IMG/VR virus record: IMGVR_UViG_3300032782_000007
Coordinates: 9,240-73,239 of that record
Strand: one strand, 5' to 3'
Length of the DNA: 64,000 bases
From: a virus
Below are positions 6,009-58,141 of this stretch, piece by piece. Under the pieces are notes generated by a model. It was not told the origin of the DNA, did not search any database, and saw only the letters and a program-made list of their open reading frames with translations. Positions within the stretch are counted from its first letter, which is position 1, and every line of letters begins with the position of its first letter. A program made the translations under genes and the position numbers.

Positions 6009-6030
6009 TCCAGTAACACTGGAATTTCCT

Positions 6031-6067
6031 CCGGAAACCTCGGCGAAAGCCGGGGTTTCCGGCATTT
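6031..6067 (+). terminator. Intrinsic terminator after the capsid gene
   Basis: CCGGAAACCTCGGC-GAAA-GCCGGGGTTTCCGG stem-loop followed by CATTT. Confidence 0.75.
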
Positions 6068-6125
6068 AAGGGTCCACACAAAATTTGTGTTGAACGTGCA
6101 CGCCTCGGAGCGTATAACTCTCGGC

Positions 6126-7226
6126 ATGGGTCGAGTCGCAGGGAAGAAGCACGAGAAGCCGCGGGTATACTTGGCGCCCGAGCAGAAAACAGCATTGGTC
6201 CGTCGATACAACGAGGCGTTAGCCTCGAACGAGTTCCTCACGCAGGCCCAGCTGGGGGCGGAGTTCGGAATCACGCAGGTAGCGGCAAGCAAGATTCTCC
6301 GTGCGGCGGGGGTGAGGACGCGTTCCCGTGAGGAGGCGTGCCCGACGCGGATAGATCCTCAGGAGGCAGCTAGGATCTACCTGGAGAACCCTCGAATGAC
6401 GATCGAAGAGGTCGGCGAGCTGTACGACGTCGGTTACACGGCGACTCGAGACCAGCTGCTCAAAGCGGGAGTACCGTTGAGGACGTCAACGGACTACGCG
6501 CGATACGCGTGCAACAGGAATTTCTTTGCTGAGGTGAACCCTACGACCGCGTACTTTGCGGGGTTCATCGCCGCTGACGGATACATCACCAAATCGGGTT
6601 TGTCCGTGAATTTCGGGCTCCATCCGAAAGACGCGGTGATTCTGACGAATCTCAAGGCAGCCTGTGGATCGGAGCATCCAATAGTGGTCAGGCCTAACAA
6701 CACAGGGAGGTTATACAGCTGGCTCTCGGTGTGCAGCATCGACTGGGTGCGGGACCTCGAGCGTCACTACAATATCGTCAACGCGAAGTCGTTGATCCTT
6801 AGGCCTCCGAATCTGACCGATGAGGGCCTGATCTGGCACTTCATCCGCGGCTACTTCGACGGCGATGGACATGCAAGTCTTGCCGGTCTGGTACATATCA
6901 TCACAGGTTCCCAGGCGTTTATGGGCTGGCTGAAAGAGATTCTAGGAGAGCCCGGGCACATCCAGGAACACGAGTGGCTCAACGAGGACAAGGAGACCTA
7001 CATTTGCGGCTACGGCGCCTGGTGGTCTAAACTTGCGGACGCTAAACGGATTGCGCTGAAAATGTACGCCGACTCCACGCCCGCCATCCGGCTGGAGCGT
7101 AAATTTCTGCGTTTGCAACGGCATTTCGGGCCTGGGCCTCAGACGGCGCCCGAAGAGTTCGAGGACGTTCTCGAGCTAGACGACGCGGACGACGCCCCCG
7201 AGTTGGAACGGATTAAAGGCGCTTGA
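6126..7226 (+). CDS. Free-standing LAGLIDADG homing endonuclease with N-terminal HTH repeats
   Basis: AYFAGFIAADG and FIRGYFDGDG motifs; TTGAAC-17-TATAAC promoter 7 nt before ATG 6126. Confidence 0.9.
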   Translation: MGRVAGKKHEKPRVYLAPEQKTALVRRYNEALASNEFLTQAQLGAEFGITQVAASKILRAAGVRTRSREEACPTRIDPQEAARIYLENPRMTIEEVGELYDVGYTATRDQLLKAGVPLRTSTDYARYACNRNFFAEVNPTTAYFAGFIAADGYITKSGLSVNFGLHPKDAVILTNLKAACGSEHPIVVRPNNTGRLYSWLSVCSIDWVRDLERHYNIVNAKSLILRPPNLTDEGLIWHFIRGYFDGDGHASLAGLVHIITGSQAFMGWLKEILGEPGHIQEHEWLNEDKETYICGYGAWWSKLADAKRIALKMYADSTPAIRLERKFLRLQRHFGPGPQTAPEEFEDVLELDDADDAPELERIKGA

Positions 7227-8553: not shown

Positions 8554-8905
8554 CGGTTATCCAGGCGTGGGCCAAACACCGCTGTTTGCTCCGCGACTGC
8601 GTGTAGAGCTGGAACACGTCAAGCACGGTATCCAGACGATGCTCACGGCGCATACGGAAGAACTTCAGCAGATGGCGGAGGAAGCGCTCGCGGAGCTTCT
8701 CGTTCCAGAGAAGATCGCCGAGCGAGTACGTCAGGAGGTTGAGGCCCAGCTTCGGCGGGTCCTGGACGAGACGATTGTCACTGCGATTCGATCGTCCGTC
8801 GGCGATGTCGTATTCGAACGAGTTCGAGAGGCTACGTTGTTGGCGGCGAAAACGGAGGTAGAACGCCTCTCGAAGCGCGCCAAGCGCGGCCGCCAGCGAC
8901 GTTGA
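8546..8905 (+). CDS. Hypothetical helical protein
   Basis: ATG 8546 after AAGGA; coupled to the previous gene. Confidence 0.55.
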   Translation: MNNGYPGVGQTPLFAPRLRVELEHVKHGIQTMLTAHTEELQQMAEEALAELLVPEKIAERVRQEVEAQLRRVLDETIVTAIRSSVGDVVFERVREATLLAAKTEVERLSKRAKRGRQRR

Positions 8906-12600: not shown

Positions 12601-13381
12601 CGACAGGAAGACCTTCGAGGACCTGCAGCGGGTGATCAGCAAACGTCTCGACGGGGCACGAACGGTCGCAGTCGAGGAGGCGCTTCGCGAGCTACACGAG
12701 AAGCATCCCCCGTTTCGACTGCTCGCGGAGGTTCGCCGCCTACGTAAGGCGCTTCTCCAAATCCCGACAGGCCTAGCGTGCCGGCTTTGCGGAAGGATGC
12801 CTACTCATGCAGTCACGCTCTGCGAGAGCCGCATGCTCTGCGAGAGCTGCATCGACGATTTGACTGAGATCGGAAGTGGCGGCAAGTGACAATCGGCCGC
12901 CAACTGTGGTAACGAAAGAAGGATGTTCGATCCGACAATCGAGGCCGCGCTGCATAAGCTCTACGAGAAGGTTGTTCTCACGGACGAAGACTGGGAACGG
13001 CTTGGAGTGGAGATGCGTACTGAGGGCGCAGGCGCAGTATCCGCGCGCATTGACCGACTTGTGACGGCGTTCACGGCTGTCAATGCGCCTCCGATTCCGG
13101 GCCTAAAGCCCTCTTTAGCCGCGGTTATCGAGTATGACCGCGTGACTCGGCTGGAAGCCCAAACGGCTGTCTATAAGAGCGAGAAACAAGCGTTCGAAGA
13201 CTGGTCGAACACATTCCAGAATGAGAACGTAATCGACGCTCCCTGGGAAGCCAACCGGATGGGATTGTTGATTGCGTGGCAGCTTTCGCGTCTCAACAAG
13301 AACCTCGAAGATCTCAAGAACATACTCGATCTCCGCTGGGAAGCTAACCGGATGCTCGAGATCATGCGAGAGCCGAAATGA
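9662..13381 (+). other. Run of small, closely packed hypothetical genes (9662-10048, 10057-10233, 10237-10461, 10473-10634, 10641-10925, 10939-11163, 11160-11504, 11528-11725, 11722-12216, 12221-12505, 12509-12889, 12923-13381)
   Basis: Abutting or overlapping start/stop codons on +; several CxxC zinc-finger motifs; no recognisable families. Confidence 0.55.
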
Positions 13382-13746
13382 GCGCCGGACGGCCTTCTAT
13401 GGGCGAGCGCGCCTTTCGCGCAACTATCGTGGTTCCAGTACGATACGAACAGCGCGAACGAGCGATGGCTTTGGCGGCCACTCACGGGCTCTCTGTGGCG
13501 CAGGTAATGCGAATTGCCCTTGAGACACTGACCGAGCAGAAATTGGAACAAGCGCTGAAGACTTTCTCCGCGGCGGAGAAACTTAGGCGATCCGATGAGC
13601 GATCGAAAACTGTATCTGTTCGAGAGCGGGAATCCCGACTGGGTCGTCGCGTACGACGTCGAAGACGCTCGCAACCTCTACTGCGCGCACCTCGGCGAGG
13701 ACGTCGACGACTACGACGTTCACGAGTGGAAGCAGCTCGCGGATGA
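13378..13746 (+). CDS. Ribbon-helix-helix-like DNA-binding protein
   Basis: GRP motif then ATIVVPV...ERAMALAATHGLSVAQVMRIALE; 3' part overlaps the next gene. Confidence 0.5.
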   Translation: MSAGRPSMGERAFRATIVVPVRYEQRERAMALAATHGLSVAQVMRIALETLTEQKLEQALKTFSAAEKLRRSDERSKTVSVRERESRLGRRVRRRRRSQPLLRAPRRGRRRLRRSRVEAARG

Positions 13747-13882
13747 TAAGGCCGCCCTGTACTGGTTGGATCCGGAGACGGGAACGCTTACCGACGAGTA
13801 TGACGGGGTCCTCACCACGTTGACCGCGCGCGAGGTGGTTGAACGATTCGGGCGCGGCTTCGTGGCGTCGGTAGACTTCTAA
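13595..13882 (+). CDS. Hypothetical acidic protein
   Basis: 95-aa ORF with phage-like composition (DWVVAYDVEDA). Confidence 0.55.
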   Translation: MSDRKLYLFESGNPDWVVAYDVEDARNLYCAHLGEDVDDYDVHEWKQLADDKAALYWLDPETGTLTDEYDGVLTTLTAREVVERFGRGFVASVDF

Positions 13883-13885
13883 GAG

Positions 13886-13914
13886 TTGACACTCCGTGCG
13901 GGCGCTGGTAGAAC
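13886..13914 (+). promoter_or_regulatory. Sigma70-type promoter
   Basis: TTGACA, 17 nt, (TGn)TAGAAC; predicted start ~13921. Confidence 0.55.
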
Positions 13915-13925
13915 CGATTATGGGA

Positions 13926-14076
13926 TTCTTGGGTCCCTGAGAGGGTTTGGGCGCGCCATCACCGCGTCTGAGACGCCTTCCGAAGCGGGTTGATGCTCGT
14001 GCCGGGACCAAGAAGGACCTGTTTCTTTTGGTGGCGCTGCCAGGATCGGGTGATGGCCGAGCTGGTGGTGCCCGAA
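13926..14076 (+). ncRNA. Structured tRNA-like leader RNA with internal antisense target
   Basis: Closing helix 13926-13937/14004-14014; hairpins 13964-13976 and 13985-14000; 13946-13963 complementary to 14049-14057 plus 14068-14076. Confidence 0.55.
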
Positions 14077-14086
14077 AGAAGCACGA

Positions 14087-14764
14087 ATGGTCAACAAGAA
14101 GAAAAAGAAGGCCCGCGATCTGTCTAAAAAGTCCGGGATGTCCTACCAGGCGGCGGTGAATGCCTTGGACGCGAAGTCCCCGGCAAGGGAACCGAACCCT
14201 CCGATCTCGGCGGCCATACCCATTTTGTGGGGGCCTCCGCTTCCACACGAAGAACTGGAGAGACGAGCGCTCGATCTTCGAACGTTAGATGAGGTCTTGG
14301 CTGACGAAGATAATATCATCGAACAGCGCCGTCCAGGCGCTAGAGCCGACGTCGAGGGGGGTGCGCTGCGGTTGGCCTCAGATATTGGAAAAGCATGGGA
14401 TGAGCGGCACGTCCGGAAGCTTCGCGCAGAAGTGCTCCAAGGGGAAAAGGCACTAGAGTTGGTATGCCACGGTCGGCCCACCAGCACGCTAGTCGCGACC
14501 TTTTTCCGAGGCTCGGCTCGCGATCCTCTTCTTCTCCAGGACGAAAAGCGAACCTACGTCGCCCTGGAAGTCCTTCCAGAAATGCTGAGGCGCGCTGTAG
14601 AGAGCGAGATCGGTTCGCAGAGACGTAGCCGCGAAGATCGAACACTTCAGTGGGTGGAGAAAGAACTACTAGGGCGCCAGCTCATACTTCCAGAGGTGGA
14701 AGTAGGAAATCTCGAGAAGGCCGTACCGACGTACCTTTCGGCCTGGGCGAAAGACCCGGAGTAG
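14087..14764 (+). CDS. Hypothetical protein with basic N-terminal helical hairpin (KKKARDLSKKSGMSYQAAVNAL)
   Basis: 225-aa ORF downstream of the structured leader. Confidence 0.6.
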   Translation: MVNKKKKKARDLSKKSGMSYQAAVNALDAKSPAREPNPPISAAIPILWGPPLPHEELERRALDLRTLDEVLADEDNIIEQRRPGARADVEGGALRLASDIGKAWDERHVRKLRAEVLQGEKALELVCHGRPTSTLVATFFRGSARDPLLLQDEKRTYVALEVLPEMLRRAVESEIGSQRRSREDRTLQWVEKELLGRQLILPEVEVGNLEKAVPTYLSAWAKDPE

Positions 14765-14811
14765 GCGGCCTTGCGTTGCAAAGCCAGTTTCATGCGTGAT
14801 ACACTCGACGC

Positions 14812-16774
14812 ATGTCTCGAGAAATCCGTTTGGAACTGGTTTTGCGCGCTCGAACCGAGGAGGGCAAGCCTCTAACGGTTGCTGAGGCCGCGCTCCCTCT
14901 GACCCTGCGCGCGCCACAAGCAGGCCCTGCGCAGACGAAGGGCGACGGTGAAGCGGATTTGGCCGGCGCGATCGAGGCTGCGCTCGCAGAGGTTTCTGCG
15001 GCGGCTCTTGCGGGACCGTTGATTCGCAGTCTCCGTGTGAATGGGGGCGCGAGCGAGATCACGCGTAGTGGGCGAACGGTTTTCTACGTCGACGTGGGAG
15101 ACATGGAGCCTGGCGAGGCGTCCCGTTACGTCGAGAGTGTCAGGGACGCGCTTGTTCTGCGCGACGGTGAGGTCATTCAAGCAACGAGGTCCAAGTGAGC
15201 AAGATTATCCGTACGTATCGTCTTCCGCTCCCCGTGTTCAAGCAGGGCGACGATCTTGCGTACAAGATCAAGGTCAACAATGGCAACCTGGCAGAAGCCT
15301 TTCGAGATCAGGCGGACGCTTACCAGGACGCCTCGGAGATCTGTCGTAAGCTCGCAGGGGTGTGCGCGGAGACACCGGGCATGGATGTGATCGCGGACTG
15401 CCACATGGTTCAGATCGACGGGCCTCCGGAGACGCTGGCGGTGCTCGCAAAAGACGGCTTCGTTGAGATTGAGGAGTTCGACGATGACTGGGACGAGGAT
15501 TCTGAGGACGGTCTGGATCCTGATGACGACGGGCTCGACGTCTGATGAAGCAGTGCGAGTGGTTTACTAGTCCCACGGATCGCTGCCCGAATCCCGCAGT
15601 AGAACGCTGGTCGCGGAAGGGCGATCTGGACTCGGTGGTGGCCGCGGAGAAGCACTGGTGCGGCGATCACAGTCTGGACTCGAAAGCTCGTGCGGAGTGG
15701 TGGGAGCGCGTGAGTACGCTTGCGATCGGACATCTTGCGAATCGGTCGCAGGTGCTGACGAACTTCGATGTTCAGGCCATCGACGAGTAAGCGGTTATCT
15801 GGTAGGTTAGGCGTGAATGTCTGAGGGAATTCTCGATGTTTTGCAGGAGCTGAAACAGCTCGGGGCGATTGGCCCTGCGCCCGCGCCCTCGCCTGCGCCG
15901 ATCCCGCCTTCGCCGCCTTCGCCGCCAGAGCCGCCGAAAGAAGATACACGCGGTCCGCACATGATCGAGCTGTGCGAACGGGCGATGGCGACCCTTCAGA
16001 AAATGGGGCGCGCGCAGGAAGAGGGTCAACGAGATCTCTTTGCGGTATTCGAGGAGATGCGCGATCTCTGGGCGGACATCGCAACGGCCGCGCCGACTGA
16101 AACGGTTACCGTGGACGTCGAGGAGTCGAAGGCGAAAGGTCCGCACGGACTTTCACCGCCAGTTGAAACCTCGGCGACGGAGATCGCGATCCCGGTTGTA
16201 GAGGGACCGATCGAGGTTCCCCAGCAAATCGAGCAGGTCATGCGCGGGCTCGCGCCCGAGGTGTCTGCGATCGACGAGCTTCTGGTGAAGATGCAGCAAG
16301 AGGGGCACAAGTTCCCTCGTTTGGAGACAATCGAAGATGACGAAGAGCTTTATCCGGAACCCGGCAGTGTCGGAGGTGGTACTCCCTGGCGTGGGGAAAG
16401 TCCGCAACCAGGTCCTAACGGGCCAGCAGTACGAGAAGTACGTGCCGAAGTTCCTCATCGAGGTCCCGGAGTCTCAGGCGACTCCGTTGGAGCAGACAGC
16501 GCCCTCGCACGCGCCGCAGCCGCTCACCGAGCCCGCACCGATGCCCCAGCCGCTCCCGGAGGAGCAGCGGAAGAAACCGGAACCGCTCACTGAGGTGATG
16601 CCGCTAGGCGACCCGCCCGGGCCAGAACCGCTCGTCGAAGGGTGGACCGATCGCGGATTCGGCGCGCTTCCCCCGGAGGCAGCGCCAGACGCTGTCAGCT
16701 TGGAAAGCAAAGCGGTATCCGAGTCGAAGGGTGCCGACAAGGCGAAGTCCAAGTCAAAGGGCAAAGGGGCCTGA
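14812..16774 (+). other. Hypothetical genes 14812-15198, 15195-15545, 15545-15790, 15817-16593, 16337-16774
   Basis: Coupled ORFs; TTGCAA-18-TACACT promoter 6 nt before ATG 14812. Confidence 0.5.
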
Positions 16775-17854: not shown

Positions 17855-18589
17855 ATGCCCACCTCGCAAAACAGTTTGATGACGGCGGAGCAGATCCAGC
17901 AGTGGGTGCTTCGACGCCTCGGCGGCTCGTTTCTCAAGGTAGAACTATCCCAGGACGAGCTGGACGACGCCATTGAAGGCGCCCGTAGATGGTTCAGCGC
18001 GCGAAAAGGCGTGAAGAGGCAGGCGTACGTGCCGTTTTACTCCGGCCAGACCACGTACACTCTCGACCCTCAAATAGACGTAGTGCTCGACGTGAGCTTC
18101 CCGGTTCCGTCGATGGACATCTCGCTCATCTTCTCTCCGTACATCCTGCAGGACGAGAAGATCCCGTACGACGTCTTCGCGGCGCCGTCCTCGATGGGTC
18201 TCTACTCGACGTACACGCAGACCATGCAGTACATCGACGAGGCCAAGCGGATCCTCAACGCAGAGCCTGATTGGCGGCAGGAGGATCGCACTCTGTACAT
18301 TTTCCCGATCCCCAAGACGAACGGGAACATGCTTCTCGACTACAAGAGCTTCGATTTCACGATCGAGCAGCTAAGCGAACGCGATCACGACCTTGTAAAG
18401 CGCTACGCGCTAGCATGGGCCAAACGGGACGTGGGTCGTATCCGCAGCAGGTACGCGAGTTATCCCGGCGCACAGGGCCAGACCGAATTGGACGGGGATA
18501 AGCTCCTCGAAGAGGCAAAAGAGGAGATGGAGCTGCTCGACAAGGAGATCGCGTGGAGCGCGATGCCGAGCGGGTTCCTCACGGGCTAA
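17855..18589 (+). CDS. Neck / head-tail adaptor (T4 gp13-like)
   Basis: LRRLGG..LKVELS.DELDDAI, VKRYALAWAK...GRIRS, LDGD.LLEEA motifs. Confidence 0.85.
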   Translation: MPTSQNSLMTAEQIQQWVLRRLGGSFLKVELSQDELDDAIEGARRWFSARKGVKRQAYVPFYSGQTTYTLDPQIDVVLDVSFPVPSMDISLIFSPYILQDEKIPYDVFAAPSSMGLYSTYTQTMQYIDEAKRILNAEPDWRQEDRTLYIFPIPKTNGNMLLDYKSFDFTIEQLSERDHDLVKRYALAWAKRDVGRIRSRYASYPGAQGQTELDGDKLLEEAKEEMELLDKEIAWSAMPSGFLTG

Positions 18590-27731: not shown

Positions 27732-27782
27732 CGAGCTTAAAGTAACCCCCAACCGCCCCCTGTCAACGGTTACCCTGATGGG

Positions 27783-56780: not shown

Positions 56781-57436
56781 GAAAACGACTTGCATCGATC
56801 GAGGTAGCGGATCAGCTCGACATTGCGTTCTCGAAGATCGACGAGACGGGCGCGCGCCTGGACAAGCTGAAGAAGGCGTACAACGACACGGCGAACGAGA
56901 TGTCTCAAATCTCGTACGACCAGATCCAGAAAGCGACTACGCCGCCTCCCGCGCCCGCAGCGGCCCCCGCGGTTCCGCCGATGCCGGCCCCGCCACTTCC
57001 GACGGGATACTCAGTGACGGGCGAGGTCTCTTCAGAGAAGCCTCTTCCGCCGCGCCCGCGCGTTCCCCGTCCGGACCCCAGGCCGGCCAAGGTCGCGCCG
57101 CCTCCGGTGCCGAAAGCGGCGCCGCCCAAGCCGACCACTTCGGGGCGGTTTTACATTCAGTTGACCGGCGCGGAGAATCCCGAGGGGCTTCGCCAGCTTC
57201 GTGACAAGCTTGGAAAGGTCGGACGTGTTGTCGACTCTGGGCGAGGTACCGCCTCGAGTCCAGGTGCGGAATGGGTGGAAGTGGCGGTTCGTGCGGACAC
57301 CGCGGAAGTGATCGCGGCCCTGAAAGAGGTTGAGCTGAAGGAGCGGGTGGAGAAGATCATCGAGGTAAAACCTGGTGAGGGGCGACTTCTCGCGAGACAG
57401 CTCGACATATTTCATCTAAAACGTTCTCATGAATGA
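56777..57436 (+). CDS. Hypothetical protein with Pro-rich linker
   Basis: Coupled to the holin-like and GroES genes. Confidence 0.55.
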   Translation: MRKRLASIEVADQLDIAFSKIDETGARLDKLKKAYNDTANEMSQISYDQIQKATTPPPAPAAAPAVPPMPAPPLPTGYSVTGEVSSEKPLPPRPRVPRPDPRPAKVAPPPVPKAAPPKPTTSGRFYIQLTGAENPEGLRQLRDKLGKVGRVVDSGRGTASSPGAEWVEVAVRADTAEVIAALKEVELKERVEKIIEVKPGEGRLLARQLDIFHLKRSHE

Positions 57437-57794
57437 GAGCCCCATGAGTGAGAACTTGCAGAAGGTGGAAGCGACGTGGGCGGAGGTTGGTCGGAAGGCG
57501 CGACCTCTTCGCAAAATGGTTTTCGTCCGGACGGAGCTTCGTCCGGAAAAGGATGGGCTCATCTATCTTCCTCCCTCGCAGAGGACCAACTACGCCGGTC
57601 TCGGTCACAAGGTGTTCATGTACGGGCTGGTCCTGTCTGTGGGCCCTGACTGCAAGTACCTCAAGCCGGGCGATCGCGTGGCGTTCACGCGCCTCTTCTT
57701 CGCACATTGGGAGAAGCTCGAGGACGGGACTCTCGTGGGCTGGCTGGATGAGACCAACGTTTCTGCTCTTGCGAAGGGCCCGTCGGAGAACTAG
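57429..57794 (+). CDS. groES: GroES-like co-chaperonin
   Basis: RPL..MVFV, GLIYLP, GLVLSVGPDC..LKPGDRV.F. Confidence 0.8.
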   Translation: MNESPMSENLQKVEATWAEVGRKARPLRKMVFVRTELRPEKDGLIYLPPSQRTNYAGLGHKVFMYGLVLSVGPDCKYLKPGDRVAFTRLFFAHWEKLEDGTLVGWLDETNVSALAKGPSEN

Positions 57795-58141
57795 TGATGA
57801 TTCAGCACCTGCAGGAAGGGATGCTCGCTCTGCTTCACGATACGATCGTGGAGTGGGATGATGGTCCGTGCGATTGCGGGTGCTCGAAAGATCCTCGGAC
57901 GCAGGCCAAGCGGCGTCTCCTCGAGAAGCCGAAACCCAGTGCTCCGAAAGCCGAATCGGCAGCGGCAGCGCTTCTCACGATACTCGACGAGGCGCGTCCA
58001 CGCATCAAGCGGCGGATCAAAATGTTCCGGCGTTTGAGGCGAGTTCGACCGACAAGGCCCGCGCGCTCCGAGAAGATCAAAAAGTCCGTTCGCGCGTACC
58101 GAGCGATCCGGACTGGTCCCAGCCATAACCGCCACCGGTAG
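57794..58141 (+). CDS. Arg-rich hypothetical protein
   Basis: Coupled ORF with LDE motif and basic tail. Confidence 0.45.
   Translation: MMIQHLQEGMLALLHDTIVEWDDGPCDCGCSKDPRTQAKRRLLEKPKPSAPKAESAAAALLTILDEARPRIKRRIKMFRRLRRVRPTRPARSEKIKKSVRAYRAIRTGPSHNRHR

Follow-up and report, generated by a model that had tools for sequence, protein, structure and literature searches.

A 64,000-nt stretch of viral DNA (the window: bases 9240-73239 of the 73,239-nt IMG/VR virus record IMGVR_UViG_3300032782_000007; all positions below are those of the window) carries a 204-nt spacer (13883-14086) between a 95-aa gene (13595-13882) and a 225-aa open frame (14087-14764). The explanation that we favor, with somewhat better than an even chance on the predicted folding energies, is that this spacer is a cis-acting 5′ leader controlling translation in a self-contained accessory-gene cassette, and that it does so through a start-hiding hairpin of the kind known from T4. 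This 30-bp hairpin (14016-14092) is the dominant structure of the leader and was overlooked in the initial annotation, which described the region as a tRNA-like leader RNA with a built-in antisense target in front of an unknown gene. The finding is based on one sequence and on predicted thermodynamics. The elements of the cassette, all on the + strand, are as follows:

13886..13914, +, sigma-70-like promoter: TTGACA (13886-13891), 17-nt spacer, TAGAAC (13909-13914), TG at 13906-13907

13926..14014, +, 5′ domain closed by an 11-bp stem (13926-13937 with 14004-14014), one of two nearly isoenergetic predicted folds

13941..13980, +, hairpin 1: 15 bp, 7-nt loop CCAUCAC (13956-13962), found in the predicted -81.1 kcal/mol fold of the leader and in the minimum free energy (MFE) fold of 13921-14020

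14016..14092, +, ribosome-site hairpin: 30 bp (4+12+10+4) with 5 G-U pairs and the loop GUGAUGG (14050-14056), identified by folding and shuffling

14053..14127, +, candidate 24-codon frame starting at an inner AUG of the open reading frame (ORF) 13990..14127; AUG in the apical loop, AGGA (14042-14045) 7 nt upstream

14074..14081, +, likely weak Shine-Dalgarno (SD) sequence GAAAGAAG, purine-rich, 5 nt before the AUG and wholly paired in the predicted hairpin

14087..14764, +, orphan gene: 225 aa, lysine-rich N-terminal helical hairpin, best of the six frames by codon score

The stability of the ribosome-site hairpin greatly exceeded that expected from its composition. As an 84-nt piece (14012-14095) it folded with a dG of -41.9 kcal/mol (z -5.67), which was matched by none of 200 dinucleotide shuffles, and the 77-nt piece gave -40.5 kcal/mol (z -5.30). 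Because 5 of its pairs are G-U and its reverse complement folded only to -22.6 kcal/mol (z -1.61), the hairpin is to be regarded as a structure of the sense-strand RNA and not as a DNA palindrome. The pyrimidine-rich 5′ arm UGUUUCUUUUGG (14020-14031) pairs with CCGAAAGAAGCA (14072-14083), and the resulting helix covers the sole purine-rich, SD-like stretch before the AUG, while the base of the stem includes the G of the AUG itself. In the predicted fold of the full leader, 11 of the 12 lower-stem pairs had probabilities of 0.85-1.00, and the unpaired probability of GAAAGAAG was 0.00-0.03. Accordingly low was the mean unpaired probability of positions -16 to -4, namely, 0.02 against a median of 0.43, which made this start the least accessible (rank 1) of the 80 candidate starts in the window; this property had not been used in the initial annotation to choose the gene. 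The gene at 12923 carries CGAAAGAAGG directly before its ATG. When the 12 most stable single hairpins of the + strand were compared, only 2 had a z of -4 or below, and the hairpin at 14016-14092 was one of the few that stood out after correction for composition; among the 80 start regions, 5 reached a z of -3 or below. A search of the contig for a trans-acting partner of either hairpin arm returned several coding-region sites with energies of -38 to -42 kcal/mol, similar to that of the cognate arm, and no candidate among them.

The initial annotation had also proposed a promoter-led, long, structured leader in front of an unknown gene, and this part of it was supported by the presence of the TTGACA-17-TGgTAGAAC arrangement, from which a start near 13921 follows by prediction (about 13920-13922 is plausible). 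The site was absent from the strict promoter scan owing to the sixth base of its -10 element, C instead of T, and was the single promoter-like site found on both strands of 13800-14250 by a relaxed scan. The pattern TTGACA-N15-19-TAnnnY occurred 4 times in the window against 1.11 expected, a number that none of 100 shuffles attained, and every match was located directly 5′ of an open frame on its own strand. No intrinsic terminator in the leader was listed by the terminator scan. Perfect TTGACA boxes were noted in gaps just before open frames at 8902, 13886, 26297 and 59596 (+) and at 27766 (-), four of the boxes fitting the pattern TTGACA-N15-19-TAnnnY; these boxes look like host-type promoters for accessory genes inserted within the structural region. 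A 6-codon frame (13920-13940; AUG GGA UUC UUG GGU CCC UGA) has its AUG on the predicted transcription start itself, and a transcript opening with a leaderless AUG at 13920 is thus conceivable. A TTTAG(G/C)-like motif was seen 5-25 nt 5′ of many structural gene starts (439, 22235, 24848, 25501, 31878, 45891 and others); as a consensus common to the structural genes, YTTTAGS was rejected, its 18 matches comparing with 12.2 expected and being reached by 10 of 100 shuffles.

From these predictions, we infer the following course of events. The sigma-70-like promoter would start the mRNA near 13921, and the last 77 nt of the leader would fold in vivo into the 30-bp hairpin, whose 5′ arm would pair with the ribosome-binding stretch and with the G of the AUG. 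Translation of the orphan gene would thus be off or strongly damped by default, as a consequence of the burial of the ribosome site in the hairpin. The upstream half of the leader would present the loop CCAUCAC to the loop GUGAUGG of the hairpin, and this contact may lock or modulate the off state. Candidates for the event that opens the hairpin are the loop-loop contact, translation of the short upstream frame, and cleavage by RNase III.

The two-block complementarity on which the initial annotation was built is real, and every string and pairing quoted there was present at its place. GCCATCACC (13955-13963) and GGTGATGGC (14049-14057) are perfect reverse complements, a pair that was also reported by the repeat search, and TTTGGGCGC (13946-13954) can pair with GTGCCCGAA (14068-14076) with two G-U pairs. 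The further claim, that processing of the leader, by RNase P for instance, releases a cloverleaf RNA of about 90 nt (13926-14014) and that this RNA silences its own transcript by means of this two-block pairing in the manner of P1 C4 or P4 CI, appears highly improbable. To its credit, in a comparison of 5,330 + strand windows of the contig the 18-mer at 13946-13963 paired best with the cognate site (-28.7 kcal/mol against -27.7 for the runner-up); the best duplex of a leader 18-mer with downstream sequence (-29.4 kcal/mol) was equalled or beaten in 7 of 705 other windows (top 1%); and the duplex formed in trans had an energy of -34.1 kcal/mol, with 3% of 500 shuffles doing as well. A perfect inverted repeat of at least 9 nt was present in 54 of 710 (7.6%) of the 180-nt windows of the contig. 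The closing stem proposed for the domain, TTCTTGGGTCCC (13926-13937) with GGGACCAAGAA (14004-14014), was confirmed as 11 bp with one bulged G, and the enclosed hairpin GCGTC-TGA-GACGC was located at 13964-13976. Seven pairs of this stem (13926-13932 with 14008-14014) had probabilities of 0.86-0.90 in the isolated 100-nt piece, but of 0.14-0.41 in the full leader. However, the two blocks have their targets within the ribosome-site hairpin (its loop and 3′ arm), a much stronger local structure, and the fold in which the two-block pairing was enforced (-66.1 kcal/mol) was 15.3 kcal/mol worse than the MFE fold of the leader (-81.4 kcal/mol), with pair probabilities of about 0; this pairing is thus not the predicted ground state in cis. 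Antisense silencing would, moreover, be redundant, because the ribosome site is already hidden. Nor did the domain itself resemble a cloverleaf: its 13921-14016 segment folded to -39.5 kcal/mol with a z of only -1.26 (26 of 200 shuffles folded equally well), the 120-nt windows over it had z values of about -0.3 to -0.4 in a scan that covered 537 windows, up to 21.4 kb, the supposed T-arm is a predicted 6-bp helix, three of its pairs being G-U, capped by a 4-nt loop, and the ACCA at 14007-14010, taken for a free 3′ tail, is inside the 11-bp helix. ARAGORN found no tRNA or tmRNA gene in the 64,000 bases; Infernal cmscan of 13000-15000 against Rfam at E ≤ 10 gave three weak matches, none in 13886-14086 and none to C4, and there were no matches at the gathering score in the whole window. 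Kinship with the C4/CI family is further disfavored by the surroundings, which are not an immunity or antirepressor operon, and by the T4-type, virulent-looking character of the phage.

The perfect block acquires a different meaning in a second fold of the leader, which contains hairpin 1 and has an energy of -81.1 kcal/mol, differing from the MFE by no more than 0.3 kcal/mol. Here, the block appears as two 7-nt loops, CCAUCAC and GUGAUGG, which are exact complements of each other. Exposed loops complementary over at least 7 nt occurred in 33% of 200 Boltzmann samples of the leader. Neither the 710 other 180-nt windows, with 60 samples drawn from each, nor the 400 dinucleotide-shuffled leaders yielded a single case; because the loops were already known when the test was designed, this result is suggestive only. 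It would be conceivable, therefore, that the leader works as a kissing-loop switch with a leader peptide, following the logic of IncI1/IncB repZ: translation of the frame at 14053 would melt the 3′ arm and expose the main ribosome site, and the CCAUCAC-GUGAUGG pairing would mask the AUG of that frame. We consider this rather unlikely. The loops are perfectly complementary and rare in the controls, the AUG at 14053-14055 is in the apical loop with a well-spaced AGGA before it, the frame overlaps the main AUG in a different reading frame, and in the next gene downstream (14812), too, a long hairpin presents the AUG in its apical loop; in addition, an antisense RNA directed against a leader peptide and a pseudoknot is the precedent from IncI1/IncB, as outlined in PMC8053102. 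On the other hand, translation of the 24-codon frame is a matter of inference only, short open frames and AUGs being frequent; its AGGA is half base-paired in the predicted hairpin; and it stops 40 nt beyond the main AUG, an awkward position for coupling. The fold in which loop 1 is exposed accounts for only about 0.3-0.4 of the ensemble, ViennaRNA does not score loop-loop contacts, and the loop-loop switch is unproven. The most far-reaching version, in which two hairpins on one mRNA with complementary 7-nt loops would provide antisense control without an antisense gene, translation of the 24-codon frame would unlock the buried ribosome site, and the loop kiss would determine how strongly or when a possibly harmful accessory protein is made, would make this the first such cis-acting RNA switch described in a T4-type phage, and is unlikely; full-text literature searches on kissing or loop-loop control of phage mRNA leaders listed no such design. 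RNase III substrates usually need two helical turns, a length that the 30-bp hairpin, whose 12- and 10-bp helices have small internal loops between them, exceeds; the hairpin could accordingly serve mainly in RNase III processing or in message stability, like elements of phage early mRNAs, and cleavage would either free the ribosome site or destroy the message. This possibility is distinctly unlikely as the main role: nothing separates it from simple sequestration, with which it could coexist. Finally, the spacer may have no regulatory role and may represent DNA left over from an insertion or partial duplication, its structures being by-products, which seems rather unlikely. The orphan gene has atypical codon usage, and stable hairpins are common in this G+C-rich contig; the 5′ half of the leader also shows a weak ordered alignment with the 3′-terminal 60 nt of the upstream gene (described below). 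Yet a by-product would hardly be expected to have a z of -5.67 and strand-specific G-U pairs, to lie exactly over the ribosome site and the AUG, or to show a loop complementarity that was absent from all 710 windows and 400 shuffles, and the duplication is not supported at the protein level.

The alignment in question joins the 5′ half of the leader (13883-13980, promoter boxes included) with 13819-13876 of the upstream gene, weakly but in order, with TTGACC for TTGACA, GGTTGAAC for GGTAGAAC and GGGCGCGGC for GGGCGCGCC. Its chained score of 32.3 was reached by 15 of 1000 shuffles and by 14 of 624 genomic segments, and its best single segment by 76 of 1000 shuffles. The profile of the upstream-gene family matched the in-frame translation of the leader with an E of 1.3, no better than the other frames, so no protein-level signal for a duplication was detected. 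The likeness could reflect a partial tandem duplication from which a promoter arose; the idea that the leader is a decayed copy of the upstream gene's 3′ end was set aside as weak, its nucleotide support being marginal and its protein-level signal nil.

Several points weigh against the reading of the spacer as a translation-control leader with a start-hiding hairpin. The -10 hexamer of the promoter is without its usual final T. At least 12 single hairpins per strand reached -42.7 kcal/mol or better within 91 nt, so the absolute energy of the hairpin is not rare at 60% G+C, and some start among the 80 has to rank as the least accessible. The loop-loop comparison, as mentioned, was conceived post hoc. 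A second promoter that could supply an open transcript was not found: the T4-type late promoter sequence TATAAATA, at up to 1 mismatch, was absent from the + strand across the window, including the hairpin (a weak test, the late promoter consensus of this phage not being known), and 13800-14250 contained no further sigma-70-like site. The evidence comes from one sequence, no homologous leader having been found. In one distant relative examined (L002), the homologue of the upstream gene is followed by an unstructured spacer (z +0.79).

That relative came from a broader search around the leader. Blastn of 13300-15300 against 50,697 phage records gave no match. Among viral contigs, the orphan protein yielded 14 pattern matches and 0 relatives, the exact closing-stem pattern 0 matches, and the head-tail adaptor protein 0 relatives. 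The alignment of the upstream-gene family found nothing in viral or genome contigs, and 2 distant loci in metagenome contigs, L002 (39% identity) and L003 (44%), neither of which showed any likeness to the leader (best blastn E 1.4; nhmmer nothing). The sequencing runs listed with this sequence comprised one DNA run, possibly the one from which the contig was derived, and no RNA run; the contigs of that DNA run included one identical contig and six short unrelated pieces, and no variants.

The protein encoded by the orphan gene proved equally isolated. Its frame scored 2.8 by codon usage against -10 to -97 for the other frames, a weak value by the codon usage of the structural genes, and no frame in 13900-14050 carried a coding signal. 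Only the protein itself was recovered from 5.8 billion clusters (1,411 candidates), and exhaustive HMMER over 1.84 billion representatives returned only itself and P0002, a protein of 5,409 aa that has in common with it nothing but a repeated motif of about 23 residues; there was no family match in Pfam, PHROG, NCBIfam or PADLOC. The basic N-terminal helical hairpin noted in the initial annotation was reproduced by AlphaFold2, which modelled the first 30 residues in this way (block pLDDT 72-86). Beyond residue 30, the pLDDT was below 50 (overall mean 45.3), and the ESM Atlas model had a pLDDT of 0.36, with all structural neighbors at TM ≤ 0.34.

The phage is an uncultured, T4-type, virulent-looking myovirus. 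The record has a CheckV completeness of 43%, the window has a G+C content of 60.1%, almost all of its genes are on the + strand, and it contains a T4-type structural module with a Gp23 major capsid protein (PF07068, E 1.7e-70), a prohead protease S77, a tail sheath and a baseplate wedge. The leader locus is situated among small genes, with the capsid gene on one side and the head-tail adaptor gene (17855-18589, phrog_211) on the other. The gene directly upstream of the leader is the following:

13595..13882, +, upstream gene of 95 aa, member of a small conserved family, as judged from its coding score of 28.9 and its homologues

The other two sense frames of this gene scored at most -26.7 and the antisense frames at most 4.2. 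Its 13 aligned homologues (P0004-P0016; 53-71% identity) end in ...RFGRGFVASVDF; the family has 28 invariant columns, including an invariant ASVDF ending, and 7 of the 13 relatives carry a CxxC...C N-terminal extension that this phage's copy is without. The gene at 6087-7226, directly 3′ of the major capsid gene, has LAGLIDADG-like, sigma-70 region 4 and PHROG endonuclease matches and probably encodes a free-standing homing endonuclease; between this gene and the capsid gene lies a perfect 14-bp hairpin (about 6030-6065).

Predicted structured start regions recur in this phage, as in T4. A second long hairpin (14773-14849) follows directly 3′ of the stop of the orphan gene, and the AUG (14812) of the next gene, which encodes a 128-aa protein with a portal-like motif, is in its 8-nt apical loop; the 14761-14880 segment folded to -52.6 kcal/mol (z -4.21, 0 of 200 shuffles), and a weak Rfam match to 'mir-130' at 14773-14851 corresponds to this hairpin. 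The start region of the head-tail adaptor gene (17855) is predicted to be paired, with its AUG inside a helix (z -3.68 for -75 to +45). The best composition-adjusted score among the 12 most stable + strand hairpins belonged to 57801-57889 (dG -46.1 kcal/mol, z -5.91, 0 of 200 shuffles), which has a 13-bp perfect upper stem and is located at the junction of ORFs 57429-57794 and 57794-58141.

If the ribosome-site hairpin works as predicted, a high-G+C, uncultured T4-type phage joins the phages that silence accessory genes by folding the ribosome site, and the orphan 225-aa protein is marked as one that the phage controls tightly. The complementary loops, if functional, would constitute a compact self-regulating mRNA design and a useful part for synthetic biology.

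Among the known systems, the C4 RNA, roughly 77 nt long, acts by two-block a′/b′ pairing. The RNA is described as an RNase P substrate in PMC3378863, and its control of Ant together with Icd is mentioned in PMC8201110. As in P1/P7 C4 and P4 CI, the regulator and its target would share one transcript here, with two complementary blocks upstream of the regulated gene; unlike them, the leader has no Rfam match, tRNA-like fold, free CCA tail or immunity operon of the icd/ant type (the downstream gene is without a family match and the contig is a T4-type structural region), and its "target" is buried in a stronger local hairpin. In the IncI1/IncB replicons, according to PMC8053102, the antisense RNA blocks both the translation of a leader peptide and the pseudoknot needed for RepZ translation. 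The leader would resemble repZ/repA in its structural concealment of the ribosome site, in the short upstream frame that overlaps the start and in the complementarity between the loop of an upstream hairpin and a site farther downstream on the mRNA. It differs in that the contact would be loop to loop, rather than loop to a single strand beside the ribosome site, in that it belongs to a phage and not to a replicon control region, and in that no antisense gene or promoter was seen on the - strand (relaxed scan of 13800-14250; strict scan of 13000-15500).

No sequence similarity of the leader to any described element was detected with Rfam or with blastn against phage records. Start-region hairpins have been described for T4 e, soc, 49 and I-TevI and for mobE of Aeromonas phage Aeh1, those of gene e cutting lysozyme synthesis 100-fold, and the T4 examples depend on a second promoter that provides a shorter, open transcript (PMC3014915). 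The present leader shares with them the T4-type phage, the predicted intramolecular helix containing the SD-like stretch and part of the AUG, and the non-essential-looking accessory gene that follows. The hairpin here is long and stable (30 bp, -41.9 kcal/mol). The leader differs from the T4-type examples in having no detected internal or late promoter and in possessing an upstream loop complementary to the apical loop. The start-hiding hairpin is a known kind of control in T4-type phages, and the complementary loop pair that accompanies it here is unusual.

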